The notes beneath the pieces are model-generated. The model searched no databases. It saw only the letters and a program-made list of their open reading frames with translations, and had not been told where the DNA came from. DNA of 64,000 bases from a virus. Shown here in pieces: positions 1,447-32,160 of the stretch. Positions within the stretch are counted from its first letter, which is position 1. Each line of letters starts with the position of its first letter. A program made the position numbers and the translations under genes. The stretch lies in IMG/VR virus record IMGVR_UViG_3300037258_000282, positions 64,001 through 128,000 of that record, one strand, 5' to 3'.

Positions 1447-1902
1447 TTAGTCGATGTTATCCTTCGCTCGACACACTCGATCTCTCAACTCCGACGATGA
1501 AAATGGATGCTTTCTCGAGTTAAACTCAATCGGACATAGATCGGCGCCTGTCGTCACGGACCCGAGATACTCCTCTCCAACGATCCTAACGTCCGGCTGT
1601 ATCATGAGTATCATATTCTCGAGATCTCTCTCATCACTGAAAGGAATGATCTCATCTACGTACTTACACCCGGCTACCTGAACGTACCTCTCCATCATAG
1701 ATTGAACCGGCGCATTCTTGGTCTCCGGCCTATCTATGGTCGGATCTACCAAGAGCCCTACTACAAGATAATCGCACTTCTCCTTGGCCTGCTGAAGCAT
1801 CATGACGTGCCCGGCGTGAAACAGATCGAATATCGACGACGTCAGACCTACGATAGGCTTTCTACCAAGAGCGGCCTCAAGTTTTTTCTTATCAAGAAAT
1901 AT
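1447..1902 (-). CDS. Glycerol-3-phosphate cytidylyltransferase-like (TagD/HIGH) nucleotidyltransferase; probable ATA start
   Basis: Track ORF (1803) omits the FDLFHAGH motif; frame stays open to ATA 1902 with AGGAG 6 nt upstream and an in-frame TAG immediately before. Also CDYLVVGL, KYVDEI, RKHPFSSSELR. Confidence 0.85.
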   Translation of the reverse strand: MFLDKKKLEAALGRKPIVGLTSSIFDLFHAGHVMMLQQAKEKCDYLVVGLLVDPTIDRPETKNAPVQSMMERYVQVAGCKYVDEIIPFSDERDLENMILMIQPDVRIVGEEYLGSVTTGADLCPIEFNSRKHPFSSSELRDRVCRAKDNID

Positions 1903-3097
1903 CTAACTCTCCTGTGAGTGAGAATTTATTCGTACATATCTTATGCGCGTAGACCAACCGGCGAATGGCGCAATATACTAGAGTAAGCTCCTCGACATTC
2001 TGACTGGAAGCATCAGAAGCGATAGCTCTCAACTTATACTTTATCATCCTGACTAGGTGTAGTACGGTAAGCATAACCAATAGTGGTGACGTTAAGCCAT
2101 CATTAGCCAATATATTCAGGCAGATATACTTATTATGGACAGGCCTGTAGTCGCTTCCAAGTCTCCACTCCTCATATCCTATGCATGACTGCAGTATCTT
2201 ACTAAAGTCAAGTAGATAAGAAGAGTATAGTCCGGGAGGAGAATTAGGATCTATATAGCACAACTCATCACTTTGTGTGACTATAACATTTCCAAACGTA
2301 AGGTCTCCGTGACACATCGACCTATTATCGTTCATCACTTCATGAGTTTTGAGATCATTGATCCAGTCCCAGATGTATTCCCTCTCTGGAACATCACTGA
2401 ACGCGAAGTGATCGCCGATCCTGGAGACCATCGTTTCCCAGAGAGGAATATCGCTCAAGTAGTTCGATGAGCAGTTCCTAACCGAAGAGATAAGCTCCAA
2501 CATGAGTCTCTCTATCCTAGAGTGATACTCAGTTGTTACGATCTCCTCGTTGAGAGACCTTCCCTCGACGTACTCCATATCTAAGGTATCGCCAAAGAAA
2601 GCATTTACTCTCGGCGACTTATAGAAGAAATTATTTTCTTTACGAAGCCTCGCGGCGGTCTTATACCAATCATACTGATGCCTAAGGTCTGGTCCAAACT
2701 TCAGGACTCTGTCACCAAACCTAGTTATCTTTGCGCCGGAACCACCTGAGAAATTTTCAGTCTTCATAGACACTAATTCGTCGGGTCGAATAGCCTTATC
2801 ATCAACGTAGTAGACTGCCAGTGGCTTTCCAAACTTAAGAGTGGTGTACTTAACGTCGTGTACTGACAACCACGCCTCAAGTATCGGCCTATTGTACTTC
2901 TCGATAGCCTGAATGTCCCCGTCGAACGTATACATGCCCCTAGCCGTATATAGGACTATATTTACTCCGGCGTCGTATAATTCGTTTATCCTCTGAATGA
3001 CGTCAGTCTTGGGTATCGCGTTAGCGTAGTCGCGGTGGTCTACAGTCGTCGATATAGTGTCATCGACATCGACTACTACAGTTACTGGAGCCATCAT
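1892..3097 (-). CDS. HAD phosphatase (capsule-biosynthesis phosphatase-like) fused to APH/choline kinase-like domain
   Basis: N-term VVDVDDT, YTARG, GKP..YYVDDKA (HAD); C-term GGSGA, CHGDLTFGNV, YIDPN (kinase fold). Confidence 0.8.
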   Translation of the reverse strand: MMAPVTVVVDVDDTISTTVDHRDYANAIPKTDVIQRINELYDAGVNIVLYTARGMYTFDGDIQAIEKYNRPILEAWLSVHDVKYTTLKFGKPLAVYYVDDKAIRPDELVSMKTENFSGGSGAKITRFGDRVLKFGPDLRHQYDWYKTAARLRKENNFFYKSPRVNAFFGDTLDMEYVEGRSLNEEIVTTEYHSRIERLMLELISSVRNCSSNYLSDIPLWETMVSRIGDHFAFSDVPEREYIWDWINDLKTHEVMNDNRSMCHGDLTFGNVIVTQSDELCYIDPNSPPGLYSSYLLDFSKILQSCIGYEEWRLGSDYRPVHNKYICLNILANDGLTSPLLVMLTVLHLVRMIKYKLRAIASDASSQNVEELTLVYCAIRRLVYAHKICTNKFSLTGELDIS

Positions 3098-3449
3098 CTA
3101 AAAATTCCCTGCACTTAGACAGTTGGTTTGCTATATACTTTTCATCGTTTATCTGTCTATTGAGACCAGATGGATGTGGAAGCTTGAAGTGTGATATATT
3201 TATGCGGGATAGACAATCGGATGCTAGATTTCCTAAGCATATTATATGACTGTGGCGCGCGACAAGCGAGAGAAGTCTCGTGAAGTCGACGTCGGACAAG
3301 CGAAACTTTCCAGAAACCAGCGAGCAGTTGGTAAAATTAAACTGCTCTACGCCGATAGACGCCATCCAGGCGTGCAGTCTGTATATAGTAGAGTTAACAG
3401 ACCTCGGATTACTTGTTCCTGGATTCTGCCCCACCACTAGTATAGTCAT
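3060..3449 (-). CDS. Small uracil-DNA glycosylase superfamily protein
   Basis: ILVVGQNPG, IICLGNLA and KLPHPSGLNR motifs; likely start ATG 3449. Confidence 0.7.
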   Translation of the reverse strand: MTILVVGQNPGTSNPRSVNSTIYRLHAWMASIGVEQFNFTNCSLVSGKFRLSDVDFTRLLSLVARHSHIICLGNLASDCLSRINISHFKLPHPSGLNRQINDEKYIANQLSKCREFLDDGSSNCSSRCR

Positions 3450-3909
3450 CGATGTGAAACACCATGCAAGATACACCGGACTCACTCAACATCTCGATGG
3501 CAAGCTCTGATGAATCTCTCCACTTGTCTGATATACTGCCTTGATAATTCATAACTACGCGCTTAATACCCACCTGTATGACCGCCTTAGCGCACTCGTG
3601 ACACACCGGAAGCCCATGGACGTAGAGATCGGCTCCGTCGAGAGACTGTCCCGTGAAACACGCGTTGTAGATGCAGTTCTGCTCGGCGTGTATGATATAT
3701 TGGTACTTAACCGCGCGATCATTAAGCCTCTGCTCAGTGTCCTTGAGACCTCTAGGAATACCATTATATCCAGACGATAGAAACTGCTTTCGATCTGGCC
3801 TGACTGCGACGCACCCTACCTTGGTCGACGGGTCCTTGGACATCTTAGACCAATTCTTGGCCTCTGAGAGAAAGTGATTATCCCACCTATTGATTATCAC
3901 TTGACCCAC
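3409..3909 (-). CDS. cd: dCMP deaminase
   Basis: SKDPSTKVGC, GYNGIPRG, HAEQN, PVCHECAK zinc motifs. Confidence 0.93.
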   Translation of the reverse strand: MGQVIINRWDNHFLSEAKNWSKMSKDPSTKVGCVAVRPDRKQFLSSGYNGIPRGLKDTEQRLNDRAVKYQYIIHAEQNCIYNACFTGQSLDGADLYVHGLPVCHECAKAVIQVGIKRVVMNYQGSISDKWRDSSELAIEMLSESGVSCMVFHIDDYTSGGAESRNK

Positions 3910-4643
3910 TCCGACGTAGGATACGCGATCCTATAATCGGTCTTAGGTATAGTGTAATATCCAGTCATATCGTAGTGATGCAGTAGGTAGAAGTCTCTCT
4001 CATAGACGTGAAGTGATCCTACCTGCCAGATCAAGTCACCAAGCGAGTAGTTATTTGACTTAAAATTATAATTTAGATCGGCCAGGAGCTTTCTCCGGAC
4101 GTGGTCCTGCCAGGCTCTGTCGTTTCTATACCCGAACGTGACGTCGTTAGACCTCATATTGACGATGGTGTGAAGCATATTTTCTCTGATGAGATACTGT
4201 ACAGTATTCGTGCAGATAAAGTCTGACATACCGTCCCAGTTGTAGTCCTCCCATATCTCAGGACGAGTATATATGGCGATGGCTCTTCTAGAATCTGGAC
4301 TGTTGATAAGCTCAGTCAGTACGTTGTCATACTGACAAAAATTTTCTCTAGAATAGAGAAGATACCCATAGTTCGAGTTGATCTTTCCATCGGAGCTCGC
4401 GACCTTCTTCCATATCTCAGGTACCTTACCAGGGATATCTGCGACGAATAGAGACTGATTCTCGTACCACTCGATCTCCCTCTCGATATACTCAGCATTT
4501 GGAGCGCCGAAGATCGTGATGTCGGAGGCCGAGAAGGAGTAGCCGATCAACTCAACTACTCTGCCGCCGGACTTATCGACTACGAACTTTTCGTCAACTA
4601 ACTTACGAGAGAGATCTTGACGAACGTTCCATATATTATTCAT
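3897..4643 (-). CDS. 42: dCMP hydroxymethylase (T4 gp42)
   Basis: Closely tracks T4 gp42: FVVDKSG, INSNYG, PDSRRA, DGMSDFICTNTVQYLIR (catalytic Cys), MRSNDVTFGYRND (Asp = cytosine specificity), GSLHVY. Confidence 0.93.
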   Translation of the reverse strand: MNNIWNVRQDLSRKLVDEKFVVDKSGGRVVELIGYSFSASDITIFGAPNAEYIEREIEWYENQSLFVADIPGKVPEIWKKVASSDGKINSNYGYLLYSRENFCQYDNVLTELINSPDSRRAIAIYTRPEIWEDYNWDGMSDFICTNTVQYLIRENMLHTIVNMRSNDVTFGYRNDRAWQDHVRRKLLADLNYNFKSNNYSLGDLIWQVGSLHVYERDFYLLHHYDMTGYYTIPKTDYRIAYPTSEWVK

Positions 4644-5410
4644 ACTGACTCCATCTCTAATATCATCAGCCTACCATTAGAGTCTTCTACAACTGACGTT
4701 AGAGACTCAACCCAATCTCCAGTATTGATATACTCAACTCCATCTATACATTTTATAATAGCATGGTGGATGTGTCCACATATTACACCATCTACGCACA
4801 TCTGTCTAGCGTAGTCAGTAACTAATTTTTCAAACTTTGATATGAAGTTAATAACCGACTTCACTGAGTCCTTACCATATTGAGCTAATGACCAGTATGG
4901 CATTCCGAACAGCCATCTGACGTCATTCATGTACTTATTCAGGACGAATAGAGCCTCATAGAGGAAGTCGCCGAGATGCATCATCCATTTAGCTCTAGTC
5001 ATAAAGACGTCGAACTTATCTCCGTGAAGTATGAGATATCTCTTTCCAAAAGAAGTCTCAAATAACACTTCGTCAACTACAGAGATCGAGCCTAATCCTA
5101 TGTTGAACTCAGTTCTAGAAAACTTACGTAAAAACTCATCGTGATTTCCCGCGACCACATACACCTTAGTACCGAGTGAGGCCTTCTCAAGTATAAGTTG
5201 AACTATTTTAGTCTCGTACTTACTCCACCTCCACTTGGACTTCAGTGCCCACCCATCTATCACGTCGCCGACTAAGAATAGAAAGTCCGACTTCGTCGAC
5301 TTTAAGAAACTCAGCAGAGCCTTACTGTTGGCGTACTTCATCCCCAGATGCGCGTCTGAGATGAATATAGACCTATAGTATGATGGTTTAGTCAGGTCTA
5401 AAATCCTCAT
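4640..5410 (-). CDS. Calcineurin-like metallophosphoesterase, UDP-2,3-diacylglucosamine hydrolase (LpxH)-like
   Basis: FISDAHLG, LVGDVIDGW, GNHDE, HGDKFD, CGHIHH, NTGDWVES. Confidence 0.85.
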   Translation of the reverse strand: MRILDLTKPSYYRSIFISDAHLGMKYANSKALLSFLKSTKSDFLFLVGDVIDGWALKSKWRWSKYETKIVQLILEKASLGTKVYVVAGNHDEFLRKFSRTEFNIGLGSISVVDEVLFETSFGKRYLILHGDKFDVFMTRAKWMMHLGDFLYEALFVLNKYMNDVRWLFGMPYWSLAQYGKDSVKSVINFISKFEKLVTDYARQMCVDGVICGHIHHAIIKCIDGVEYINTGDWVESLTSVVEDSNGRLMILEMESV

Positions 5411-6158
5411 ACTCGCGAGTCACTTCCCTACCACCCGTAACAGCCAGGTAGTTCTTGACGTACGCTAGGGTGGTGTTAAATATACCCTGCTCGCGAAGTC
5501 TACGAGACGATGAGTATATCCACATCGCCGGAATAAGTCTAACACTACCGAAATTAGACAACCTTCTAGCGAGGTCCGTGTCCTCACCGTAGAATGGAAT
5601 GTTAGTAGAATGACCACCGGCCGCCGTCAGATATTTGCGCTTGAGGATGAAGTTGCCACCCTGAAGCGTCGGACCTATAATCATATTGGCAACTATATTC
5701 ATAATGTAGAACCCGGCGGCGCCGGCCTTGACCGGAAGGCTCATATCACTAAAATACAGCGGACCAGACACGACCGCGATATTTGGGTTCTCCACGAGTT
5801 GTACGATATTGTCAAGCCAGTTAGGTGGAACTATATTATCAGCGTCGATATAGGCGTGATACTGATACCTAGCAAAATCAGCTCCACGCTGACGGGCTCT
5901 AGTGACTCCCTTTTGAGACTCGAAAACTACACTTATCGGACACATCGACCTACTATCTTCAGTCGCCACCAGAGCGGCCTCGACATACGTCCGATCTGTA
6001 GAATTATTATCTACGACGATGATCTCAAAGTCACTTATAAGCCCGTCGAGCATCTCGTCCCTTGAGAATCTCTCGCACTCATCGAGAATCGACCTGACAC
6101 ACTTAGCTATACTCTTCTCCTCGTTATACGCGGGAATTATAAAGCTGATGCCACCCAA
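5388..6158 (-). CDS. Family 2 glycosyltransferase
   Basis: IIPAYNEE, VVDNNSTD, IDAD (DxD), GEDTDL, SSRR; TTG start with AGGAG RBS. Confidence 0.9.
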   Translation of the reverse strand: MGGISFIIPAYNEEKSIAKCVRSILDECERFSRDEMLDGLISDFEIIVVDNNSTDRTYVEAALVATEDSRSMCPISVVFESQKGVTRARQRGADFARYQYHAYIDADNIVPPNWLDNIVQLVENPNIAVVSGPLYFSDMSLPVKAGAAGFYIMNIVANMIIGPTLQGGNFILKRKYLTAAGGHSTNIPFYGEDTDLARRLSNFGSVRLIPAMWIYSSSRRLREQGIFNTTLAYVKNYLAVTGGREVTREYEDFRPD

Positions 6159-6188
6159 GTTTAAACTCCTAATGTTTCAATAATAAAC

Positions 6189-6860
6189 CTAGTGCCATTC
6201 CAGGTTGAGATCGTCTAAGAATTCACTCTCGACGCTCAAGTCTATGGACTCGGGCGCGGGATGCGCGGGTTTGAGCGTCGAAGTAGTCGTCGAAGTATGC
6301 GGCTTGGTGAGGAGGTCATTAAATATGTCCCTAGACTCATCTTGCCCATCCATCTTCCCCCTAAGCCATGACACAGCAAATGAGGCATAGTTTATCAAGT
6401 CTTTGTATGTGTCCTCAAGTGACTCATTATTGGGTGTATTTCCAGACTCGATCAGCGACTGAGCCCTGAACATCTTTCCCATCATGATATCATGGATGGT
6501 GTCGATTCCACGGCGGTAGTGATCCGCCTGTCTCACTCGCGAGTTAGGGTTCTGATAGTCATGAGACTTTTTTCTCATGATGTCAATGCACTCATGAAGC
6601 ACGTTCATCGCTTCTGTGTTTGAAGCGTCAGATTTCTCGATCTGTGTGATGATCTCACAGTCCCTACATATGTTTTCTTCATACTGACCTTGAAGATAGA
6701 TCGCCTGATAAATCTCCACGTCAGTCTTACCACCGAGCCATTTCTTTACTTCGGGCTCGATCCAGTCAGCGATCTGACTGGCAGACATATGGAGCATAGA
6801 GTCTAAGTTATAAAAACTGACAGCATGTTGAATAGCCTCATTCAAAGTAGTACTCATCAT
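6189..6860 (-). CDS. Nucleotide-modification-associated domain 1 (DUF1599-like) protein with N-terminal extension
   Basis: RKKSHDYQ...K..RA...NESLEDTYKDLINYASF pattern; cluster context. Confidence 0.65.
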   Translation of the reverse strand: MMSTTLNEAIQHAVSFYNLDSMLHMSASQIADWIEPEVKKWLGGKTDVEIYQAIYLQGQYEENICRDCEIITQIEKSDASNTEAMNVLHECIDIMRKKSHDYQNPNSRVRQADHYRRGIDTIHDIMMGKMFRAQSLIESGNTPNNESLEDTYKDLINYASFAVSWLRGKMDGQDESRDIFNDLLTKPHTSTTTSTLKPAHPAPESIDLSVESEFLDDLNLEWH

Positions 6861-6881
6861 ATCTCTCCAACTCGTATATAC

Positions 6882-7989: not shown

Positions 7990-8492
7990 TTTTGAATTAT
8001 CCAGTCTGGAACTTCTCTGTTCTTATATTTCAATAGATGTCTCTTATGGGTGTTATAGTACTTTCTATAAGACCCTACTACGTCTTCGTCGATGACGCAG
8101 TCGTCAGCGACGCATGGCACTATCACCGAGAAGTCGACTTCTCCGACGAATTTTTTAACGTTCAGCGGAGGTGACTGCAATTGATAGAGCATAGACGAGC
8201 ACTTGTGCTCTCTCCCATATCTGAACTTATACTCCACGAGAAGCCCATGAAAATGATCCGCTAGCCACCAGTAGTTATCGACTGACTCTCGACACCACTT
8301 AGCGCACGGATGATTGACGTGCGTCTTCTTATAGAAGACCAACTCGCGTTCGTCGGGCAGAGGATCGCCGTCTGCTACTCTATGCGCCGTGGAGAGAAGC
8401 TGAGCCGTTTCTAGAACCATCTTAACGACGTGCTTATCACACATCATCCTGGCTGCCTCCCAGGGCTCCTCGTGAAGAAAAAATATGTTCAT
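7986..8492 (-). CDS. Pyrimidine-dimer DNA glycosylase-like (DenV family) protein
   Basis: MNIFFL, CDKHVVKMVLETAQLLSTAH, THVNHPCAKW, RYGREH, YRKYY. Confidence 0.75.
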   Translation of the reverse strand: MNIFFLHEEPWEAARMMCDKHVVKMVLETAQLLSTAHRVADGDPLPDERELVFYKKTHVNHPCAKWCRESVDNYWWLADHFHGLLVEYKFRYGREHKCSSMLYQLQSPPLNVKKFVGEVDFSVIVPCVADDCVIDEDVVGSYRKYYNTHKRHLLKYKNREVPDWIIQN

Positions 8493-8498
8493 GTGATG

Positions 8499-8527: not shown

Positions 8528-9049
8528 TCACTTTCTTATGTACTTCATCAGGCCGATGCCAGAATAATCAACTTCGTGAGCGTTCTTTATCGCCCTATCC
8601 AGAGTTATCCTATTAACTAGACCCTCGAAGAACACCTTTCCATCGAGGTGCATCAGCTCGTGCTGTATGACTCTAGCCGTAATACCGGTATACTGGGCCG
8701 TGTCGACATGCGAGTTTGGTAAGGCAAACCTGAGTCTAATGTGAAGAGGTCGGCGGATTGGAACTACTAAGTGTGGATAGGTCACACACGCTTCGTTAAA
8801 CTTAAGATCTTCTGCTGAGAAAGTAAGCAGTCGCGGATTGAAGAACACGAAGTTCTCAGGAGAGCCCCTCATGGCGAATATTCTATAGGGTACGCCGACC
8901 TGATTCGACGCGAGGCCGACCGCTCCCGTTTCATACATAAAATGCACGAGCTCAGACGCGAACTCAATGGGATCGAACGGTGGGTTCGCGAAGTCAAACT
9001 CTTTAGTTGGAGTTGACAGTACTGGATCATCGTACCTCACTAGTTCCAT
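8528..9049 (-). CDS. def: Peptide deformylase
   Basis: VGLASNQVG, FFNP, EACVTYP (EGCLS variant), QHELMHLDG. Confidence 0.88.
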   Translation of the reverse strand: MELVRYDDPVLSTPTKEFDFANPPFDPIEFASELVHFMYETGAVGLASNQVGVPYRIFAMRGSPENFVFFNPRLLTFSAEDLKFNEACVTYPHLVVPIRRPLHIRLRFALPNSHVDTAQYTGITARVIQHELMHLDGKVFFEGLVNRITLDRAIKNAHEVDYSGIGLMKYIRK

Positions 9050-9057
9050 GACTCATC

Positions 9058-12791: not shown

Positions 12792-14243
12792 TCATATCGA
12801 GATATTATAGGTCTTAAATGGAAATTCTTCTGAAGCGTAGATCTTAAGTCTCTCGATCATGTGAAGGATGGTAAAATTCTTATGAGACTTCCACGATAGA
12901 TCGTCGGCGACGTCGTAGAGCTTCGCGTGACTCTTGGTATCGTGAAGCCTCAGCATCCTACCGATAGACTGAAGATTCTTGATCTTTCCCTTAGAAGGAG
13001 ACGCAAATATCACGTTGTGAAGCTTCTTAATATTAGTACCCGTCGAGAAAGTTCCATCAGACGCTACTATGATCGCGTCGTCTTCTGTCTCGATTATCTT
13101 ACGAATCTCATCTCTATCTAATCCATCTACCTCTCCGGATATATAGTAGACGTTCCTGTCACTACCTACTTCGTCTCGTATCATGTCATACAAGACCTTT
13201 CCATGCTTCTCCACGAAATGAAACATCACGAGAGTATTTCCCTTGAGTGATATAGCTAGATTCCTGATAAAGCAGTTTCTCTCTCTACACCTCACGAGAT
13301 GATCCATCTCCTCTGGATACTTCATCTTGAAGCAGGATTTTCTAACGTCATCTGAGTACTGAAGCACCAAGACCTTTATCTGAAGCTTAGATATCTTATC
13401 GTCATCCATAAGCTTCTTGGAGGTAGTCACTCGATAGGTAGGTCCAAATAGACCGTTTAGAACCATCTCATTACACTTGGTCCCATCAAGCGTTCCAGTA
13501 AAGCCGTACCTATACTTGACTTTAGTGCACTTCTCCATGATCCCAGTTATAGACTTAGCTTTCGCGAGATGAGCCTCATCGCCAACTACGCAAGAGAACT
13601 GATCGAACCACTCCTGCGGCATCTGAAATATACTCTGCCAGGTCGACACTATCACGTCACGATCAGTACTCTTATCGGCTCCAGCCATTATCTTATGACA
13701 GTAGTCCTCAGGAGCCCCATACTCAGTAAAATCTGACTCCATCTGATGCACGAGTTGAGTCGTCGGAACTATTATCAGCTTTCTTCCAGATACGTATCGA
13801 CATATGAGATATATCATCATCGACTTTCCAGATGCGGTTGGAGAGACGTAGAGCTCGCGCCTCTTCCTCACCGCCCTGACGAAAGTAGAGAACTGATAGT
13901 CGCGTAGCTCAAACTTCTCTGGAATCTTCAGCGTCTTGATGAAGTCCGCCGCCTCCTTTCCTGAGAATTGATCTTCAGTAAAGTCGGAAGACTTGTCGAA
14001 CTGATACCCACTCGACTTACAGAACTCTCCTATGGAATCTGCTAGCCCAGCGTATATCACGCACGTCATGGGGTTGAACAGGCGTATGCGCCCGTCCCAG
14101 ATTCCCCTCTTGTACAGGGGGGTGAACTTGTACCCCGGCACCATGAAGGAGAACGCGTCGCGAAGCTCGAATGCTGTAGATGGCTCGCAGTATATCTTCA
14201 AGTAGACCTCGTTGATCTTTACTATAGATACTACTTCTGTCAA
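12792..14243 (-). CDS. uvsW: UvsW SF2 helicase
   Basis: WDGRIRLF, SPTASGKS, GDEAH, GFTGT, QSIGRMLR; likely TTG start 14243. Confidence 0.95.
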   Translation of the reverse strand: MTEVVSIVKINEVYLKIYCEPSTAFELRDAFSFMVPGYKFTPLYKRGIWDGRIRLFNPMTCVIYAGLADSIGEFCKSSGYQFDKSSDFTEDQFSGKEAADFIKTLKIPEKFELRDYQFSTFVRAVRKRRELYVSPTASGKSMMIYLICRYVSGRKLIIVPTTQLVHQMESDFTEYGAPEDYCHKIMAGADKSTDRDVIVSTWQSIFQMPQEWFDQFSCVVGDEAHLAKAKSITGIMEKCTKVKYRYGFTGTLDGTKCNEMVLNGLFGPTYRVTTSKKLMDDDKISKLQIKVLVLQYSDDVRKSCFKMKYPEEMDHLVRCRERNCFIRNLAISLKGNTLVMFHFVEKHGKVLYDMIRDEVGSDRNVYYISGEVDGLDRDEIRKIIETEDDAIIVASDGTFSTGTNIKKLHNVIFASPSKGKIKNLQSIGRMLRLHDTKSHAKLYDVADDLSWKSHKNFTILHMIERLKIYASEEFPFKTYNISI

Positions 14244-15502: not shown

Positions 15503-16897
15503 TTATACGTATACGTACTTTGCGCTCCCGCAGTCCCATATCCTGTCGTAGCCCTCATCCAACATGATCTGCCACTCAGTTAGATCCTCAGAGTAGCTTG
15601 GAAATGCCTTCAGCTTGTGCTTCTGAAACCTAACTCTGGATGACAGGCCGGATGGATACCTCCTGTCAAAATACCAGTAGTTCGGCGGCGTGTCGGCCAC
15701 TCTCGAGAAGCCACATCTCTCATACACTCTCCCAGATCCAAAGCGCAGGTCCGCGTAGGTCATTATTCCGGTTGGTTCGTACTCTTCTATGAACCAACCG
15801 AAGAGTCTCGACGCGCCACCGGCGACCTGAGTGTTGGCGACCGTGGTCATGCGGATGCACTCCCAGTCTATAGTCTTATCAAAGCGAGACTTTCCCATGG
15901 TTAGCGTCTGAAGTAGCTCTCCGTCGCGCTCAAGCCCGAGGTGGACACTTCCCGGACGATGACCATGAGAGTGGTTCTTAGACGCGAACTCTGCGGCTAT
16001 TTTAGAATCTAAATGCAGAACCGCGCACTCTCTGGCGCCGACTCTCCTGGAGCACATACCGAGCTTGACGCGAATCAGTGACTTTGTCAGATCGAGGTCG
16101 TCGGTCTCGAATACGGTAATCAGGTCGTATCCAGCCGCCGCGCATAGATCTCTCTTCGTCTTATGGTAGCTCTTGGCCCTCTCTCCGGTAAACTCAGAGT
16201 GCCAGTATAGGCCGCAGTACTCTATGGCTAACTTCCTGGAGTGGCACACTACGTCGAGCTCATACGGTGGGATCACGGTTCTATCAGAGGACTCCCAGAT
16301 GAGTTCCGGAGACAGAGACTGGCAAAAGTTGAACAAGGCGATCTCCGCGACAGATCGAGATGGATTGATTGTAGTTATGTCATACTCCTTGACTAGTCTC
16401 TTTATAGATGTACCTGAGAGGTCGAAGTGTCTGCCTAGTTGCGTTAGATTCTTATACTCATCATAGGCGGTGATAAACTCCTCTTTGGTGGGGATCATCC
16501 TCTGCCACGCTTTGACCTTTGCAATCTTTATTGACTCTGATAGAGTGTTTCTCGTTATATTATATCCATCGAGCCAATTGTAGATAGTATCTTGGCCTAC
16601 ATGAAACATTTTAGTAAGAGCGTGAATAGAGTTATTTTTACAGAGAGATTCAAGCTCTTCTCTAGATGGAGGATCATTTTCTACCAGATGTCTCTGGGAT
16701 GCTTCAGTCGAAGCCTGCTTGTGGTCTTTTACGGGTATGCCATATGACTGAAGCCAATGTCTTATAGTTACGTGCGTGGTATCATATATCTTCGCCATCG
16801 ATGATAGGGTAGAGCCAAACCTGAAGTACTTATCTATGAGCTCTTCTCTTGATGGTTTAGTGAATCGCTTTCCGACGCCAGTTCCTGTAGAAGTCAT
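15503..16897 (-). CDS. Hef-like free-standing homing endonuclease (HTH repeats + Vsr/PD-(D/E)xK + GNAT-like domain)
   Basis: Three HTH-like repeats, ELDV...KLAIEYCGLYWHSE...K...C...GYDLITVFE, then GGASRLF, TYADLRF, PNYWY, RIWDCG. Confidence 0.75.
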   Translation of the reverse strand: MTSTGTGVGKRFTKPSREELIDKYFRFGSTLSSMAKIYDTTHVTIRHWLQSYGIPVKDHKQASTEASQRHLVENDPPSREELESLCKNNSIHALTKMFHVGQDTIYNWLDGYNITRNTLSESIKIAKVKAWQRMIPTKEEFITAYDEYKNLTQLGRHFDLSGTSIKRLVKEYDITTINPSRSVAEIALFNFCQSLSPELIWESSDRTVIPPYELDVVCHSRKLAIEYCGLYWHSEFTGERAKSYHKTKRDLCAAAGYDLITVFETDDLDLTKSLIRVKLGMCSRRVGARECAVLHLDSKIAAEFASKNHSHGHRPGSVHLGLERDGELLQTLTMGKSRFDKTIDWECIRMTTVANTQVAGGASRLFGWFIEEYEPTGIMTYADLRFGSGRVYERCGFSRVADTPPNYWYFDRRYPSGLSSRVRFQKHKLKAFPSYSEDLTEWQIMLDEGYDRIWDCGSAKYVYV

Positions 16898-22876: not shown

Positions 22877-22882
22877 CTGATG

Positions 22883-23065: not shown

Positions 23066-23078
23066 TATACTTCCTCAC

Positions 23079-26000
23079 TTACTGTCCCTTGATATCTTGC
23101 CCAGCGGTACCTTTCGTCGCGCCGATAGACTTGGCTATCTCTGGATTCTTAGCTAGAATTTGCACCGCCGCCTTATACTTAGACTGATCCTGCATCGAGC
23201 GATTTTCCTTAGATTTCTTCTTCATCATCTCTATCGTCTGCTTGGCCTTTCTAACCTCTTCATACTTCTTGGCCTTATCGTCATCCACCATAGCATCGGA
23301 ATCTGAACCAACGTCCTGGGGCACATCATCTGGATTCTCATCTGGATTCTCATCTGGGTTCATCATATCTTGTGGCTGCCACCTCGGATCACCGGAGTCG
23401 AGCTCGGCCTGTATCTCGGCGTCCATCTTTTCGATGTCCTCATCTGACTGCTGGAGGACGTTCTTACGAACCCACTCATTAGAATAGTACTTACCTACCA
23501 TGTCCTGAAGATTTCTAGCGAGCTCAACTCTAGAAGTCAGTACCTCACCATCTTTTAGTTCAGTGAAGTAGTTATCCTTTGAGTAGTTATACTTTACTCT
23601 CTGCTCTATATCCTGCCAGTCCTCAAGAGACATAACCCCCTTGAGGACTAACTGCTTCTCGAGAAGCTTATTGAATATGATCGAGAAGCGTGAGCGAAGT
23701 CTTATGATGAACCGAGCAAACTTTACCTCGTCGCGCGTTACTTCGGTCGCCCTTCCCACGGAGAAAAGTGCGTCCGAGTTCAGTCGGGAGACAGGTACGT
23801 TGAGAGTCTGTAGAAACTTCTTCTGAAAGTATAAGACGTCGTCCATCTGCCCGAGGTTTTGACCTCCCGGCAGGGTAGTAACCTCAGTTCCACGCCCGCC
23901 CTCTCTTCTCGGAAGCCAGTAATCTTCAAGAGTTGTATTCTTTGAATAAATCCCACAGTCAAGCTGAAAGGTATGATGGCTATCATATGCCTCTTTTTCA
24001 AAGTCAATAGTCAGGCACCCGACGTCCATCTTCTCGTTGAGGAATTCTACAGATACGACCCTGTGGTTGTGCAGTTGCTCGGCGTGATACCCTCTAGAGC
24101 CAAAGTCTCCCTTGATGTTATTTCTATCTAATCCACTGGCGCGGCAGAAAGCGCTGAGATTCTCAATTATCTCAATCTGTCCGTCAGGAGCAGTGATCTT
24201 CCATGACTTACACGCAACAGAAGTTCTATTTTTAGCCGCTACAGATAGTGACTCTCTCCACTGTGTATTATTTGACATATCAACGTATCGCTTTAGCGTA
24301 CTGCGTTGCTTTTTATTATGTACTATTTTCGAAGCAAACTGAGCTGAGTAGCTCTTCCAGTTCTTATGTCCGAGGCGCCCGCACACTTTAAGCAGGTCGC
24401 GATACAGGAACTTCCAGGGCACGATAGCCCTCTTGGGCATGATGGTGTCGGCATTAGCGCTCATCCACGCCGCATGATCGATCTTCTCATTGATTAGTTT
24501 TAGAGCTTCCGCTCCTCTCATCTGGTCTCTGGCGCACTTCTCTACTACACCGTATATCTCGTCGGTGTATAATAGAGTTCGAGCCTCGGCATTCTTTATC
24601 TTCAACTCATCGCTGTTACAGAACACCGAGTGGTACTTCCAGTGATCCCTGTTGTTCATCATGACAAGGTTCTCTGGATTATTGTTGTATCTATTTAAGT
24701 CGAAGTGGTGAACTGTCCTCTTGTTTAGGTGGTTCAAGTCAGCATCATAAGAGAATTCCTCGCGAAGCCCGTTCTCGTCTTTCCACTTAGATACCGCGCG
24801 ATGAGTAAATACCCACTTCTTACTGTCATTTTGATATATCTGCTCGTACTCTCTTCCACCATCTTCTATGGGAGACATCCTCCTATAGCCTGGAATGATC
24901 GACTCACCAATCGCGAGGTGCTGAGCCTCGACGAACCCCTTGTTCCAAACTGGAAACTTGTGATCTGGTGTGCAGACAACGCTCTTGCCATTGTCAAGAG
25001 TGACGCGAACTACGTCGGAGTCTCTCTTAGTGATGCCAGCCCACTCTACTGGTCCTGGCGCGAATTTACCAGTCATGGGATCGCATGAGTATACCCAGTT
25101 CTTCTTACCAGCCTCGTACTCGGCGATTATCTCTTCTAGCGGAAGAGTGCGACCATCCAGCAGTGGTATTCTCGTATCTAACGCGAGACACATGAACTTG
25201 CGATCGTCACGAACCTCACCAGACGCGGCGTCATATATGAGACGATTCTTGTGCTTCACCATGATCTCGCGGACGTACTGCTCCGCCTTGATCTTTGGAA
25301 GATTACCGACGTCGATGTACCATATTCTTCTCTCGGGGGCTCTCGCGATCCTGTATATGACCATGGAGTCTTCGAGCGTCCTAAGCTGGTTCAGAGACTT
25401 AATGCCCTTATGCAGATAGGACAGGACCATGGTCCCACCGTTATCTGTCAGCCCGGATACTACGTGAAGTATGGAATCTACCGCGATCTTTAGGCCGTTA
25501 GTCGCAGGGCCAGATGGCTTATTTCCGTAGTTGAACCCCTTATCGTTGAACACGAAGTACTCGTTAGCAACGCGAGTGATCGTGGCGTCACCGCCTCCGA
25601 TACCTCCAGATGAGCCTCCCTGAACTCGCTTTCGAGCGACCTCGCGAATCTTACGGATCTTTCTCGGATCTATGTATCGAAGTTCCTTGATGCCACCAGA
25701 CGTATCGTTCTCATCTATGATGACGTGATAGTATAGGCGCCCATCGATATACCAGCGCCTGAGAATGTCGTACGCGTATTTGTTAAAATCGAGAAGGTCT
25801 AGGCAGTTGTGAAACTCCTCGATTATGACCTTCTTAATATTATCAGAGATATTGACTTTATCTAGATTTATATCTACGATGGTCTCTTCGTCGATAGACA
25901 TAGCTTCATTGACTATCTCATCGATAGCCGAATCGCACTCCGGCTGGAGCGACATCTCTCGATATTTAGTGACGAGTTCGGCCTCAGTTCGAACAGTTCC

Positions 26001-26138: not shown

Positions 26139-26164
26139 AACGGAAAGTGACTCCTATGACGCTA

Positions 26165-26803
26165 TTATGACTGCCCACCAGTAGGATCTACAGTGATGGC
26201 CGCGGTCGTATTGGAGATCTCCCACCAGTCATAAGAGAAAGTAACGTCGAATACCTCTATCTGGTTGGTCTGATCCCATCCGAGTCTGATCTCTGCGACG
26301 TTGTTGGGCCATGCACCCATGATGGCGTATGTTACGATCTGCGATCCGGTTTTCGAGAACTGAGTGACGTCCATCTCTACCTTGTATGAAGTTCCAGAGC
26401 TTCCACCCGTGGTAGTCGTTGTATTGGTTCCAATACCTGGAGTTGGCCCACCGGACTCAGATAGAAAGTTAGGATTGCGGACGTTACCGACCATGGCGTT
26501 TATGTAGTTCGACCACGCCTCAAACGTCGAGCGAAGGAGAAAGTCCTCGTCGTTCTGGATAGTTACGGTCCAATCCGGAAAGGTCCTATCTCCAGCCGCC
26601 TTCATGGTCCGCCCAAAGTACGGTACGGGAATATTTCCTATAGTCGCCGGTGGAATCGACCCCGCCTGGCAGGCAAATTGGAACTTCTGAGGAGCTCCAG
26701 GAGCAGAGAACGGAGGAAGATTGAGAGTGCAGCTGAAGAGTGAGGGACGAGCACCGTCGAGAACTAGTCCCTGCTGTCTGAATGTGGCTATGTTGAATGG
26801 CAG
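26165..26803 (-). CDS. 19: Tail tube protein gp19; probable CTG start
   Basis: Frame extends 5' of the track start: (M)PFNIATFRQQGLVLDGARPSLF...PYFGRTMKAAGDRTFPDWTVTIQNDEDF; GGGAG RBS 8 nt before CTG 26803. Confidence 0.92.
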   Translation of the reverse strand: MPFNIATFRQQGLVLDGARPSLFSCTLNLPPFSAPGAPQKFQFACQAGSIPPATIGNIPVPYFGRTMKAAGDRTFPDWTVTIQNDEDFLLRSTFEAWSNYINAMVGNVRNPNFLSESGGPTPGIGTNTTTTTGGSSGTSYKVEMDVTQFSKTGSQIVTYAIMGAWPNNVAEIRLGWDQTNQIEVFDVTFSYDWWEISNTTAAITVDPTGGQS

Positions 26804-26817
26804 TGGAGTTACTCCCG

Positions 26818-27012
26818 TTAGATGACGTATGTACTATTTATTCTCTTCTGATGTGAGGCAGACATCTTGGTCCTAGTCTCATCAGATATCTTGGTACCTA
26901 ATTTTCTCAGTCTCATCTTCTCTCTAGCCTCTGTGGAGTGCCTATTACCGGTATTATCGGTCGGAATGCCAGAGCTCCAGACTCTAATGTATTTTTTTAT
27001 CAAAGGTACCAA
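26818..27012 (-). pseudogene. Homing endonuclease remnant (NUMOD3-like motifs only)
   Basis: RHSTEAREKMR and KISDETRTKMS; no nuclease domain. Confidence 0.6.
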
Positions 27013-27067
27013 AAATATTTAGTAGGTGAAGAAATCCTACTAAGTTGTTGATTTCAAATTGGTTTTA

Positions 27068-29200
27068 TTATCCCGAGAAGTTGCCAACTACCTCTGCGAA
27101 GGCCACTCCGGTCGGAACAGCTACAAAATTAAGTTGTATAAAGTTAATTGAGCGCGATGGCTTGACGTATATGTCGGCCACAAACTGATTTGAGTCAATT
27201 ACCTGAGCCGTGTTGTTGGTGGTATCGCAGACAACTTCGAAGTCAAAGATACCATCGAGAGCCTTGATTCCCGCAAGATATGGAGTCACCATATTGACGA
27301 ACGCCGCGCGGGTAAACGCGTCATTTAGCTGGAATAGGGTATACTTCGCGGCTATAGAGATGGCCTTCTCTATGGTGATGAACAGGCGCCTGACGTTGAT
27401 GCGATCGAAGGCCGACGGCTGCGACAGCATCGTCTTGTCTCCGTAGAGGATCGTTCCCTGAGCCGGGAAAGTCACTACCGGATCTATGCCGTTTGGATAC
27501 AGGAGATTCCTATCCGAGAGGGCCGGATTGAAGCGCATCTTGACGACGTTGTTTATCTGACCGCGGTTGAAGCCGGCCGGTGAGTCCCAAGGATATCCGA
27601 TGGAATCATTCCTCACGCAGAGCCCGGCGATGTCTCCGTTGGTCGGAACCCACCTATAGACGTCATTATACCTATCGTACTGGTACTTATACCCGGAATC
27701 GATCAGGGCATAGGAAGTAGACGAGAGGATGTTCCTCCAGTTTATGAGCGCTACGGCCTCATTATTATAGTTGTTAGTGATGACCGCGTCGTCTGGAGTG
27801 ATAAACACCACGCAGTCTAGGCGAAATTGGGCGATATTCTGGATCAGCCACTCACTTAGGAGGAAGTTGTTGATCTGCATGCCGGATCCATCTAGGGCTA
27901 CCGTAGCTCCACCGATAGGTCTTCCCTGAAGGATCAGAGACACGTCGATGTCTTCGGTCGACTGAAACTTCAGGTAGCCGTTGGTGATGGTCGCCAGCGA
28001 GGCGTTGGACTCGCCGACTCCGTCTTGGCCGGAGTTAAAGGCGATCGTAAGTGGAAAGCTGTCTGACGAGCTGAGGAGCGACGTGGAGATCGCGGAGTTG
28101 GCCGCGTGATCTGGGCGATCGTTTACTCCCCAGGCGTACTGAGAGTTCTGGTTGAGGACGGTCTTCCAGAAGTTCGTCACACCACCTACGGTCAGCGCGT
28201 CGGTCGCGCGAGATAGGTTGGTGTAGGTCTCGAGAATGGTTCCAGGGACTCCCGAGAAATCTCCGTTCTCATCTTGAATGACCACGTGCATTCCATCGAT
28301 GATCGACGCGTTGGACGTCTTCGTCGCCATATACGGCGTCTGCTGAGGTGGAACTCCGATGACGTTCTGAAATTCCCAGAACCTAGTGATGAAGTTGGTG
28401 TTCGCCGCGGCAGATGAGTTGATCGAGAAGTCCGTCGATACGATATACTTCGAGGTCAGTCCGACAGATACGGTCGAGATATTCGAAGTCGCGTTCGTGG
28501 TAAGTACCGGAGCTGATATCGTCGCGATCTGAGAGTACTGCGTTCCGACAGAGGTATTTCCCAGCACTATGTAGTCGCCAACAGAGAAGTTAGAGATCAG
28601 CGTGTTGACCGCCGCAGTTATCTGCGTTCCGTTAGCGCCGACCATCACGAGTGATACGGCGTTAGATCCAGTATTGATCGACGCGGTAGTCACTACAGCG
28701 TTTGAAGATACGGCGTTTGGAAGAAAGACGTTTGAGGTATAGGCATTGACCGAGTCGCACACCGACACGAGAAGTGAATTTCCGAGCCCGCCCGGCCACT
28801 TAGCGATGAACATCGCGTTAGTGTCGAATGATACGACGTTCTCAAATTGAGCCTCGTTAGTGACCACGCAAAGCGCGACGTTAGCGACCGGTCCGGTGTT
28901 GGCGATAGCGTTGAGAGCGGCATTGGCGTCACCAGAGGTCGTGTTGGCCGCGCGAACGACGAAGAGCTGATTACCATAGGACAGGAAGTTAGCCGCGGTA
29001 AACCAAGTCTGGAAGTTGTTCTGGTTAGGAGATCCAAAGGTCGACACTAGAGTCGACTCGGAGTTGATCTGAATGGCCTCTCCAACTGGTCCCCAGCTGA
29101 AGATACCGGCAATCGCTCCCTGAGTAGTGCCTACCGCCGGAACTATGGTAGTTAGGTCAAACTCAGTTACGTTTACGCCGGGAGATAGTTGAGTCGCCAT
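27068..29200 (-). CDS. 18: Tail sheath protein gp18
   Basis: LSPGVNVTEFD, AANFLSYGN, KYQYDRYND, SPAGFNRG, SAFDRINVRRLF, KPSRSINFI. Confidence 0.97.
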   Translation of the reverse strand: MATQLSPGVNVTEFDLTTIVPAVGTTQGAIAGIFSWGPVGEAIQINSESTLVSTFGSPNQNNFQTWFTAANFLSYGNQLFVVRAANTTSGDANAALNAIANTGPVANVALCVVTNEAQFENVVSFDTNAMFIAKWPGGLGNSLLVSVCDSVNAYTSNVFLPNAVSSNAVVTTASINTGSNAVSLVMVGANGTQITAAVNTLISNFSVGDYIVLGNTSVGTQYSQIATISAPVLTTNATSNISTVSVGLTSKYIVSTDFSINSSAAANTNFITRFWEFQNVIGVPPQQTPYMATKTSNASIIDGMHVVIQDENGDFSGVPGTILETYTNLSRATDALTVGGVTNFWKTVLNQNSQYAWGVNDRPDHAANSAISTSLLSSSDSFPLTIAFNSGQDGVGESNASLATITNGYLKFQSTEDIDVSLILQGRPIGGATVALDGSGMQINNFLLSEWLIQNIAQFRLDCVVFITPDDAVITNNYNNEAVALINWRNILSSTSYALIDSGYKYQYDRYNDVYRWVPTNGDIAGLCVRNDSIGYPWDSPAGFNRGQINNVVKMRFNPALSDRNLLYPNGIDPVVTFPAQGTILYGDKTMLSQPSAFDRINVRRLFITIEKAISIAAKYTLFQLNDAFTRAAFVNMVTPYLAGIKALDGIFDFEVVCDTTNNTAQVIDSNQFVADIYVKPSRSINFIQLNFVAVPTGVAFAEVVGNFSG

Positions 29201-29295
29201 GCCTCTTTCCTTTCAGTAGTTTAAACTACAACTGATTATTATTCTAATTTCCGAGTATTTATAATACTGAGGCTTTCACTACAGTTCCGTATTTA

Positions 29296-30957
29296 TCAGA
29301 ATTTCTCCTGCTTATAGTACATCCAGTTGTCACCGTCGTATGGTCTGACGTTTGGATCCGGCTCATCCCTGCCGTCATACACGAATAGAAATTGGGCTAG
29401 ATCCTGCTCGATCTCTTCGTCTGTCTTATCTCTAAGCTTCTGCATGGTATGGATGTTGGCATAGTCCTTGAAGTATCCTTGATCTGACAGCCATGAGAAG
29501 AGCACGAGACCCATGACCAAGTCGTCGTGCTTTCCCGGCTCGGCCTCATATGAATCTTTCTTCTTTGAGAACGTCGAGAGCTCCTCGATAGTGTTAAAAT
29601 CATTTATGATGAGCTGATTCTGCTCCACGAGAAGCTTTAATATCGAGCAACCTATGTTCTTAACTACTTTAGTAGTCCTGATACCCTTATCAATCTGCTT
29701 TCCACCGAAGCCAGAGGTGATCCTCTTTCCAGACCTTCCGGCATTCTCAGTAAAGAGAACGTTGTCATAGTTGAAGTCATAGTGCAGGGAGGTAGAGACC
29801 TGCTCACCGATATCGTTGATCTCTACTAGAACTGCCGAATTGTTGTAGGCGATCGCGACTCTATGCACTATGGCGGCGTAGTCCAATGGAGTGATGTAGT
29901 TGTCTCTATACACCGCGACCTGCTCATATGGCATCTCGGTGACGTCGATAAGTTGAAACGCAGAGTAGTCTAGACCTTTTCCACGTGAGACGTCGCAGAC
30001 CATCATGTAGATCCTATTAGGTCGCGGAGAGACATACACGTGAAGTCCCTCGGAAGCGGTCTCTGGACTCTTCCATATGAGCTCCTTGAGCTTCCATCCC
30101 GCGATAAGCGTTCCAGATGAACCTTGAAATTCGCACTCCATCTCTTGGGCGAATTTCTGAAGATCTCCATTCATTCCATCGAGAGTGTCTTTCTTCCACT
30201 TCTCGTCCCTTCCCGGAACGTCCTTCCAGTGGACTCTCAGAGGCTTGAACTGATTTTTTCTCTCCTTGGCTCCTACCCAAAACTTATGAAAGTGATTGAG
30301 TCCAAATGGCGTGGAGACCAAGATGATCTTTGAGTCGACGCCGGACGAGATAGTCGGATAGACTGAGGTGTAGAACTCATCCCACTTCTCGATGTGAGCC
30401 GCCTCGTCGACGAAGAGAAGTGATATGGAGTATCCTCGGATCGCGTCTTTTGTAGTAGTAGAAGCTATAACGCGAGAGTTGTTGTCTAGCTCAAACGATC
30501 CCTCGTTCCACTTCAGAACTCCATGCTGAAGCCACTTGGGAAGATGCTCGTATGCGAGCTGAATGCGTCCTAGTATCTCGCGAGCGACCTCTCCCTTGTT
30601 GGCTAGCAGCGCGACGGTCTTCTCTGACTGAAACAGAACGTACCACAGTATGAAGCCGCACGTAGTGGTTGACTTGCCACTTTGACGCGCGGAAGTTATA
30701 ATATTGAACCTCTCATTTTTGAAGTTCAACAACATCTGCTTCTGATAGTCATATAGCTTAAAGTGCACGAGTCCCTTATCTAGAGATACGATCTTCATGT
30801 AGGTCTCTACGAAGTAGATGGGATCCTCGGAGCACTTGACGTACTCTTGAATAAGTTCCGGCGTCCACTCTATCTGCTGATTAGCTCTCTTTAAGAGTGG
30901 ATTTCCGTTGTAGGCTTTTACTAGGTCGAAATTTCGATCATCCTGCATACTTACCAT
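29296..30957 (-). CDS. 17: Terminase large subunit gp17
   Basis: YNGNPLLK, ARQSGKS, FVDEAA, STPFG, DVSRGKGLDYS, HDDLVM. Confidence 0.97.
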   Translation of the reverse strand: MVSMQDDRNFDLVKAYNGNPLLKRANQQIEWTPELIQEYVKCSEDPIYFVETYMKIVSLDKGLVHFKLYDYQKQMLLNFKNERFNIITSARQSGKSTTTCGFILWYVLFQSEKTVALLANKGEVAREILGRIQLAYEHLPKWLQHGVLKWNEGSFELDNNSRVIASTTTKDAIRGYSISLLFVDEAAHIEKWDEFYTSVYPTISSGVDSKIILVSTPFGLNHFHKFWVGAKERKNQFKPLRVHWKDVPGRDEKWKKDTLDGMNGDLQKFAQEMECEFQGSSGTLIAGWKLKELIWKSPETASEGLHVYVSPRPNRIYMMVCDVSRGKGLDYSAFQLIDVTEMPYEQVAVYRDNYITPLDYAAIVHRVAIAYNNSAVLVEINDIGEQVSTSLHYDFNYDNVLFTENAGRSGKRITSGFGGKQIDKGIRTTKVVKNIGCSILKLLVEQNQLIINDFNTIEELSTFSKKKDSYEAEPGKHDDLVMGLVLFSWLSDQGYFKDYANIHTMQKLRDKTDEEIEQDLAQFLFVYDGRDEPDPNVRPYDGDNWMYYKQEKF

Positions 30958-31357
30958 CCTCTTGAGGTGACTCTACGACCTTCATCTCTATGATCTTCTG
31001 CTCGTCCTTAACTCCAGCTATCATCTTCGCGAGTTCTGCCGTAGAGAGAAATAGGTTGTTGTTCGTGATGTTTTTAGTCGAAGTGATCGGAGCGTCGGCG
31101 TTGCGAATAGATCTGATCTTTATCTGAAGATCAAGAAGGTCCTTGTTAGCCATCACTATAGTCGAGACTAGCCCGGAGAGAACCTCATATGAGCGCGGAT
31201 GCTGCGACTGCTGGGCTAGATTAGAGAGTTCGTGAAGAGAGGTCTTGGCGGTCTCTATAACTTCTAATAGATTAGCTCTCGCGGTCTCAAAGTCTCTCGA
31301 TGCCGAGTCGTTGTTTACTTCATCAAGCAGGTTAGAGATCTCATCACTTTCGCTCAT
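30938..31357 (-). CDS. 16: Terminase small subunit gp16
   Basis: DFETARANL, QHPRSYEV, NNNLFLSTAEL; synteny. Confidence 0.9.
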   Translation of the reverse strand: MSESDEISNLLDEVNNDSASRDFETARANLLEVIETAKTSLHELSNLAQQSQHPRSYEVLSGLVSTIVMANKDLLDLQIKIRSIRNADAPITSTKNITNNNLFLSTAELAKMIAGVKDEQKIIEMKVVESPQEDGKYAG

Positions 31358-32160
31358 ACGTCAGTTTCCATTATAGTAGAGATGAACCCATAGTCGTCAG
31401 TTATGGAGATCTCTTGATATGGAATCGTTAGAGACGCGTTTGAAGTCGGCTGACCATTAGCGAGAAGACCAGGATAATACTGAAAGCTTGCAGATGGAGT
31501 CAAGTTAGCCGCCGCATCTCCAACTATGATAGATGTGTTAGTGAATTGAATTGGGAAGGCCTGCTTTATCGGCCCGTACATATATCCCTTGACCTGAAGA
31601 CTAAACTCCCAGATTATAGCTCTTCTCTTATTGAAGTCACCGTCGTAATTATCAGATACCGCGACGTCTGATATGACTACTGGAATATTTCTAGAGTCAC
31701 TCATCTCGGGGACCAGATTTATAGATAGGGTCCAATCTGGAGTAAAGTATGGAAGTATCTGCTCGATGATCTTCGTACCGTCCTCAGCGTTCTTCACGTA
31801 GACGTAGCACTTGAAGTTGATGTTATAGGGAACTGGGTTATACTGAACGCTGAGGCGGTTAGCCGCAGAGCCCGGCCGTATGTTTCGATTTATAGTCTCA
31901 AGCTTTCTCGACGCGTCGTACTCTAGTCCCACCAGCTCATACGACATCACGGGAAGTATCACGGCGGCTGGCCTAGAGATGTCGGGATCTTGGTCGACTC
32001 TGGCCATCATCTTATCTTTGGGAGCGTACATAACCGGCACGGTTAGGAGCTCAGTAGTCGAGCCACCGACTGTCCTGACTATCTTGATGTCGTTGAGAAG
32101 AACTCCTACTAGAACTACATACTTTCTGATGAGTCCGAAATAATACGACTGGCCAAAAAT
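31354..32160 (-). CDS. 15: Tail sheath stabilizer gp15; probable ATT start
   Basis: Conserved N-term (M)FGQSYYFGLIRKYVVLVGVLLNDI lies upstream of the track start; GGAGG 5 nt before ATT 32160; PVPYN, KIIEQILPYFTP. Confidence 0.9.
   Translation of the reverse strand: MFGQSYYFGLIRKYVVLVGVLLNDIKIVRTVGGSTTELLTVPVMYAPKDKMMARVDQDPDISRPAAVILPVMSYELVGLEYDASRKLETINRNIRPGSAANRLSVQYNPVPYNINFKCYVYVKNAEDGTKIIEQILPYFTPDWTLSINLVPEMSDSRNIPVVISDVAVSDNYDGDFNKRRAIIWEFSLQVKGYMYGPIKQAFPIQFTNTSIIVGDAAANLTPSASFQYYPGLLANGQPTSNASLTIPYQEISITDDYGFISTIMETDV

Follow-up and report, generated by a model that had tools for sequence, protein, structure and literature searches.

Probable near-cognate start codons on three conserved genes of an uncultured T4-like phage

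Do three conserved genes of a T4-like phage, among them the gene of the high-copy tail tube, begin at ATA, CTG and ATT? The question is raised by bases 64001-128000 of one 152,589-bp IMG/VR virus record (IMGVR_UViG_3300037258_000282; completeness estimate 91%), a stretch of 64,000 nucleotides referred to here as the window. Positions are those of the window unless the genome is named. The three genes encode a predicted cytidylyltransferase (1447-1902, minus strand, 151 amino acids; Pfam PF01467), the tail tube protein gp19 (26165-26803, minus strand, 212 amino acids; Pfam PF06841 and tblastn) and the tail sheath stabiliser gp15 (31354-32160, minus strand, 268 amino acids; Pfam PF16724). Judged by its genes, the source phage is a distant, uncultured T4-like myovirus, whose closest cultured relatives are Stenotrophomonas phage DLP_6, Pelagibacter phage Mosig, Caulobacter phage Cr30 and Sinorhizobium phage phiM12, with protein identities of at most 39%. 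An earlier annotation of the window, hereafter the sequence-only reading, had proposed that each gene starts at a near-cognate codon behind a well-spaced Shine-Dalgarno (SD) sequence, below an in-frame TAG and with no ATG, GTG or TTG available. The forced geometry of the three loci and the alignment with orthologous first codons bear out these starts, and we conclude that the three genes very probably begin at ATA, CTG and ATT.

The cytidylyltransferase gene (PF01467 match, E=1.6e-13) opens with ATA at 1902-1900 on the minus strand. Its SD sequence, AGGAG (1913-1909; duplex energy -7.4 kcal/mol), is separated from the start by a spacer of 6 nucleotides, and this spacer contains an in-frame TAG (1905-1903). 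The first canonical start, ATG 1803, is located 33 codons downstream of the ATA, past the HxGH nucleotide-binding motif (FDLFHAGH). In the nine closest of 80 relatives, at 61-65% identity, the ATA is aligned with ATG (eight loci) or GTG (one locus); their N-termini read MFLDRKKL, MLLDKQSL, MYINKKEI or VFLNRSEL, compared to IFLDKKKL here. The start furthermore shares 11 nucleotides with the end of the upstream 401-residue gene (TGA 1894-1892), so that reinitiation after termination is possible at the ATA. A second cytidylyltransferase paralogue, located outside the window on the minus strand of the genome (about 25500-25995), carries an ordinary ATG start (MVIKGTRDDYDYECGFTCGAFDLLHPGH).

The gp15 protein matches PF16724 as a full-length member (E=1.3e-64, residues 6-207). 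Its ATT start (32160-32158, minus strand) follows the SD sequence AGGAGG (32171-32166; -11.4 kcal/mol) after a spacer of 5 nucleotides, TTTGT, and the in-frame TAG (32172-32170) runs into this SD sequence (T-AGGAGG). The first canonical start, GTG 32040, lies 40 codons downstream of the ATT, and starting there would remove 40 residues. At 20 related loci found by a protein pattern, the ATT is aligned with codon 1 of the orthologues (IFGQSYYF versus MFGQTFYF); these loci use mostly ATG, with one GTG and one ATT (L019). An alignment-based scan yielded 80 more loci, with ATG at the aligned codon in 53, TTG in 13, GTG in 2 and ATT in 3 (L112, L116, L136); most of the remainder have an ATG one codon upstream, and three are without a clear start there. 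The ATT of L019, L112, L116 and L136 is likewise forced, with an in-frame stop 3-19 codons upstream and the next canonical codon 10-20 downstream.

Among 69 distinct gp15 proteins, the start is ATG in 51, TTG in 8, ATT in 5, GTG in 2 and uncertain in 3. A tree of these proteins needs five changes for ATT, of which well-supported branches force at least three, and seven for TTG, at least six of them forced. The SD sequences of the ATT versions have a median energy of -10.2 kcal/mol versus -5.3 kcal/mol for the ATG versions (n=5 vs 51; Mann-Whitney p = 0.001, uncorrected for phylogeny). On this tree the gp15 start codon is evolutionarily labile, ATT having arisen at least three times, paired with stronger predicted SD sequences. 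A weak start on this low-copy tail protein would appear to have been repeatedly tolerated or favoured in the phage group.

The gp19 gene begins with CTG at 26803-26801 (minus strand), 8 nucleotides after the SD sequence GGGAG (26816-26812; -6.9 kcal/mol) and below an in-frame TAG at 26836-26834. The first canonical start, ATG 26605, is found 66 codons downstream of the CTG, and its use would cost 66 of the 212 residues. The match to PF06841 (E=3.5e-5) reaches 24.1 bits against a curated cut-off of 28.2, and the same family is precomputed for the window's own truncated gp19 product and for most homologues. The annotated tail tube proteins of cultured T4-like phages align with gp19 at 33-39% identity in tblastn, and these matches support its predicted identity. 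Four orthologues on contigs that also bear gp15 start with M[TPA]FNI or MFNI, where the window reads LPFNI; the CTG is aligned with the ATG of L022, L023 and L024 (M[TPA]FNI). All of 80 further relatives carry an ATG, either in the aligned position or 1-3 codons before it, with AAGGAG-type SD sequences. A T4 late-promoter-type motif, AATAAATA (26842-26835, minus strand), is positioned 31 nucleotides upstream of the CTG, and a NATAAATA motif occurs about 25-35 nucleotides upstream of gp19 in the orthologues L022-L025. Genome-wide, ATAAATA is found 46 times, and 18 of these occurrences lie within 60 nucleotides upstream of predicted starts, mostly those of structural genes. The alignment shows the CTG retaining the orthologues' predicted late promoter, SD sequence and start layout. 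In the body of the protein, at residues of about 110-138 (window about 26480-26400, minus strand), gp19 carries an insertion of about 22 residues that is rich in Thr, Gly and Ser (PNFLSESGGPTPGIGTNTTTTTGGSSGTS) and absent from four orthologues.

Taken together, the three loci share a common arrangement. The upstream stop is followed by 33 (cytidylyltransferase), 76 (gp19) and 43 (gp15) codons before the first canonical codon, with conserved motifs inside each segment. As the sequence-only reading had it, no ATG, GTG or TTG is present between the upstream in-frame stop and the conserved residues, and the SD sequences are well spaced, with spacers of 5-8 nucleotides. For comparison with their duplex energies, the median of the ATG genes is -5.6 kcal/mol. 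The initiation regions fold at -5.4 to -7.8 kcal/mol versus a median of -9.0 kcal/mol, and are slightly less structured than the genome median. We scanned a crude gene set of 202 long open reading frames (ORFs), covering 92% of the genome, for long unoccupied in-frame extensions, and only these three genes pair a protein-like extension with a near-cognate codon and a good SD sequence. A fourth candidate, CTG at 54718, was dropped because an ATG with a conserved N-terminus is found 39 codons upstream.

A separate observation concerns positions 63300-63527 on the plus strand, where 75 codons stay open and include a conserved SLESYY region that no canonical start precedes. In three relatives the gene junction conserves the run GATTTTTTTAC, which lies at the end of the gene upstream; this conservation favours a programmed -1 frameshift, and the ORF was not counted as a further near-cognate start.

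The departure from ATG extends to the canonical alternatives. Ten TTG starts had been listed as likely, at 6158, 12403, 14243 (14243-14241), 20397, 36814, 42697, 46421 and 57479 on the minus strand and at 62632 and 63528 on the plus strand. All ten are TTG codons, and we judge all of them to be real starts. At 8 of the 10 sites no other canonical codon separates the TTG from the in-frame stop before it; at the other two, 14243 and 20397, a single canonical codon lies upstream in frame, with an SD sequence clearly weaker than that of the TTG. Their SD energies range from -5.7 to -12.7 kcal/mol. The TTG codons at 14243, 20397, 46421 and 62632 align exactly with residue 1 of the orthologue, and that at 36814 does so within two codons. 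With orthologues from two complete relatives, 40 genes could be anchored by the alignment of residue 1 to a start-type codon, and here they comprise 27 ATG, 9 TTG, 2 GTG, 1 CTG and 1 ATT.

We also compared starts that are unambiguous, defined as those of genes of at least 100 amino acids with the next canonical codon at least 20 codons further on. This genome has 39 ATG, 16 TTG and 9 GTG (about 61%, 25% and 14%), compared to 275, 17 and 9 (91%, 6% and 3%) in the pooled set of four relatives, whose genomes measure 125-162 kb at 33-43% G+C. The TTG share differs accordingly, at 16 of 64 versus 17 of 301 (Fisher p = 1.5e-5), and the excess exists despite the rarity of TTG as an internal codon here (5.8 per 1000). 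Well-annotated bacteria average 81.8% ATG, 13.8% GTG and 4.35% TTG (doi 10.1101/063800). Among predicted starts, the move away from ATG is peculiar to this phage and not shared by its group. A literature search for phages with unusually many TTG starts gave nothing useful. Codon usage across the whole genome is itself unusual for 50% G+C, with ATA at 26 per 1000, level with ATC, and both ATT (8.6 per 1000) and TTG rare.

How, then, might these codons be read? We consider it likely that ATA, CTG and ATT are true translation starts, used through formylmethionine (fMet) initiation in a system tolerant of weak starts. Since no gene for an initiation modifier, no suppressor tRNA and no intron was found, plain SD-directed initiation by fMet-tRNA on near-cognate codons is the best-supported account. 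In Escherichia coli, initiation at AUA, AUC, AUU and CUG reaches 1-2% of the AUG level, and two genes, infC and pcnB, are proven to start with AUU (doi 10.1101/063800). We postulate that the host 30S subunit, positioned by the SD sequence, would accept fMet-tRNA despite its single mismatch to AUA, CUG or AUU. Such starts would yield less than AUG, and the strong SD sequences may partly offset this loss. Reinitiation after termination of an upstream ORF may further help the cytidylyltransferase and perhaps gp19. The translation environment of the phage would thus be one that tolerates weak starts, and a property of the host would be the simplest cause.

The sequence-only reading had gone further and suggested relaxed initiation fidelity during infection, for example by antagonism of initiation factor 3 (IF3), or translational tuning. 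Tuning fits gp15, and the shift to TTG and GTG is consistent with a system-wide tolerance of weak starts, but the specific IF3 mechanism finds no support. The search for IF3, S21 and initiator tRNA genes that it had proposed was run on the genome, whose completeness is estimated at 91%: with permissive E-value limits (1 or 0.1) and positive controls, no homologue of IF3_N, IF3_C, S21, IF1 or formyltransferase was detected, and no initiator-like tRNA is present, the three CAT-anticodon tRNAs all being without the 1:72 mismatch and the three G-C pairs of an initiator. Antagonism of IF3 by a phage factor is pure speculation, and a permissive host accounts for the data equally well. The phage does encode a peptide deformylase (8528-9049, minus strand; PF01327, 97.6 bits, E=5.2e-29), which points to the processing of fMet N-termini in this system, fits normal fMet initiation and is uninformative on fidelity.

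A bolder idea is that the phage evolved under, or itself imposes, a flattened start-codon hierarchy in which UUG and even CUG, AUU and AUA would initiate efficiently, owing either to a host lineage with unusually lax start selection or to a phage factor, so far unrecognised, that targets IF3 or the 30S subunit. We regard this as rather unlikely; if true, even a high-copy late protein could use CUG. The version in which a phage-encoded factor of unknown family modifies IF3 or the 30S subunit and relaxes start discrimination, so that weak starts are efficient only in infected cells, is unlikely as well. Within the group this phage alone shows the start-codon shift, which spans both the replication-gene and the structural-gene regions, as such a factor would predict, and phage T7 offers a precedent in Gp0.7, which phosphorylates initiation factors. 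Against it stand the empty searches for IF3, IF1, S21, formyltransferase and initiator-like tRNA, from which no candidate gene emerged. Moreover, the relatives have a G+C content of 33-43% versus 50% here, which makes different hosts probable, and a difference in host is therefore a simpler explanation than a phage factor.

Several observations weigh against near-cognate initiation as the explanation of all three starts. None of 84 aligned relatives or about 645 homologues shares the CTG of gp19. In a search of 5.8 billion protein clusters, the gene caller's gp19 product, a truncation of 146 amino acids, is found on one contig and its next-best match is 52% identical; the other 119 matches listed cover at least 91% of the query, so that their N-termini are essentially complete and the CTG start is unique among them. 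At an E. coli-like 1-2%, CTG would moreover seem too weak for a protein required in more than 100 copies per virion. No second copy of the phage was found by scans of metagenome contigs with an exact pattern (NNN at the start codon) and by protein, nor by exact-product look-up, megablast against GenBank phages or the protein-cluster search; the bases rest on one assembly. The lack of a phylogenetic correction in the gp15 SD comparison belongs with these points. The gp19 CTG is the least comfortable element of the case, and we give a small chance to its being a sequence error or a rare allele.

That one or more of the three codons is really an ATG, replaced in the contig through assembly error or a rare defective allele at low coverage, is unlikely, though most plausible for the gp19 CTG. 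The contrast between this CTG and all relatives' gp19 starts and the single contig from which the phage is known both speak for such an error. Yet three different types of substitution, G>A, A>C and G>T, would be required at the three sites. With start codons occupying about 0.4% of the genome, three random errors in them would imply hundreds elsewhere, whereas the frames are intact. Apart from the odd starts the genome has long open frames and is 92% coding, so random errors or general decay are unlikely to have struck three start codons. The same gp15 ATT is present in four other assemblies, and the genome-wide shift from ATG to TTG, which affects dozens of genes, cannot be an error.

Recoding or splicing would remove the need for near-cognate initiation altogether: the N-termini would arise by read-through of the TAG, by frameshifting or hopping out of an upstream frame, or by intron splicing, and the near-cognate codons would be internal sense codons. 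We hold this to be very unlikely. An in-frame TAG does lie upstream of each gene, as the sequence-only reading had pointed out, but its significance looks incidental, as two of the TAGs are enclosed in functional motifs, TAGGAGG and the late-promoter-like AATAAATAG. The orthologues begin exactly at the codons in question, so nothing is missing, and the frames above the TAGs soon reach more stops or non-coding sequence, with no plausible start. Reassignment of TAG as a sense codon was rejected, since read-through yields neither a start nor homology and no suppressor tRNA with a CUA anticodon is found among the 25 tRNAs. TAG terminates 31 of the 202 ORFs.

Besides these 25 tRNAs, the genome yielded one doubtful transfer-messenger RNA (tmRNA) call, and some of the calls outside the window are unusual in themselves (genome coordinates). 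The tRNA-Leu(TAG) at 16126-16202 and the tRNA-Leu(TAA) at 31842-31918, called by ARAGORN, each measure 77 nucleotides and are without the long variable arm typical of leucine tRNAs in bacteria. A predicted tRNA-Ile(GAT) at 8210-8283 stands apart from the main cluster and has a G1-U72 wobble pair as well as C33 and U37 in its anticodon loop; it may be aberrant or a false call. The tmRNA is a permuted form called by ARAGORN at 135312-135627 on the minus strand, with the tag ANDNFACEARLAA, and may be spurious.

The splicing variant draws on a feature just upstream of gp19. Between the sheath and tube genes, an ORF of 64 amino acids (26818-27012, minus strand) matches the NUMOD3 family (PF07460, E=6.7e-5); it fills part of an unusually long sheath-tube gap of 264 nucleotides, and its TAA stop lies 14 nucleotides before the gp19 CTG. 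This ORF looks like the remnant of a decayed, free-standing homing endonuclease, and the history of its insertion might be related to the altered gp19 start. A group I intron with a homing endonuclease interrupting gp19 was considered and rejected: there is no intron RNA core, and the orthologues start at the aligned codon. At gathering thresholds the window contained no match to any Rfam model, and a permissive scan of 26500-27300 for a group I intron gave none at E<=0.1, its sole match up to E=1 being a human long non-coding RNA model (E=0.14).

That the proteins instead start at the next canonical codon, N-terminally truncated as in the automatic call and in the 146-residue gp19 product of the database, is the least credible reading, for it would discard the HxGH motif of the cytidylyltransferase together with 66 gp19 and 40 gp15 residues that include alignment-invariant columns, although the segments at stake stay open and are 45-55% identical to the orthologues.

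According to Pfam, the segments 31354-32160 and 26165-26803 and their neighbours constitute the T4 tail and neck module, which further includes the gp14 neck protein (32196-32978), a small-terminase-like gene (30938-31357) and the sheath (27068-29200). An Agt-like DNA glucosyltransferase adjoins the cytidylyltransferase. As in T4, the homologous proteins of genes 15 and 19 stand in the same order (neck 14, 15, ... sheath 18, tube 19) with a TATAAATA-type late-promoter motif; they differ in starting with ATT and CTG and not with ATG, and they share no more than 39% identity with the proteins of cultured T4-like phages.

The nearest precedents come from bacteria and from annotation practice. In E. 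coli, the conserved genes infC, which encodes IF3, and pcnB likewise have a near-cognate AUU behind an SD sequence as their only start; the codon is decoded by fMet-tRNA and, as a weak start, sets low expression. Streptomyces sigR, whose GTC start is repressed by IF3 in an experimentally shown regulatory role (PMC5472188), resembles the present genes in its non-canonical start on a conserved gene and in translational control through start-codon discrimination, which would be putative here. The AUU of infC is part of a proven autoregulatory loop of IF3, and regulation was demonstrated for sigR with another codon in another organism, whereas the genes described here are structural and enzyme genes of a phage, with predicted starts that include CTG and ATA as well. 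The Phage Annotation Guide lists TTG, CTG, ATT and ATC as alternative starts of tailed phages (PMC8785237), and this is the same phenomenon, in which automatic callers miss or truncate genes. The present phage differs from those cases in having three such genes, including that of the high-copy tail tube, and about 25% TTG starts, compared to 91% ATG in the four relatives. Its near-cognate starts belong to a recognised class of exceptions, which standard gene callers overlook, and do not amount to a new mechanism.

The consequences are practical in the first place. Standard callers truncate the three genes, the database version of gp19 is without its first 66 residues, and the truncation error will pass into annotation, structure prediction and family profiles that draw on environmental T4-like phages of this sort. 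Two features are worth recording: the recurrent ATT and TTG starts of gp15, compensated by the SD sequence, as opposed to the ATG of gp19 in all other relatives examined, and a single phage with an outlying start-codon spectrum in which a quarter of the genes have shifted to TTG. The gp15 gene offers a natural series for the evolution of start codons, in which TTG was acquired on at least six occasions and ATT on at least three, with SD strength compensating. If the host were found, the phage would provide a natural test of whether start-codon stringency differs among bacteria or alters during infection.

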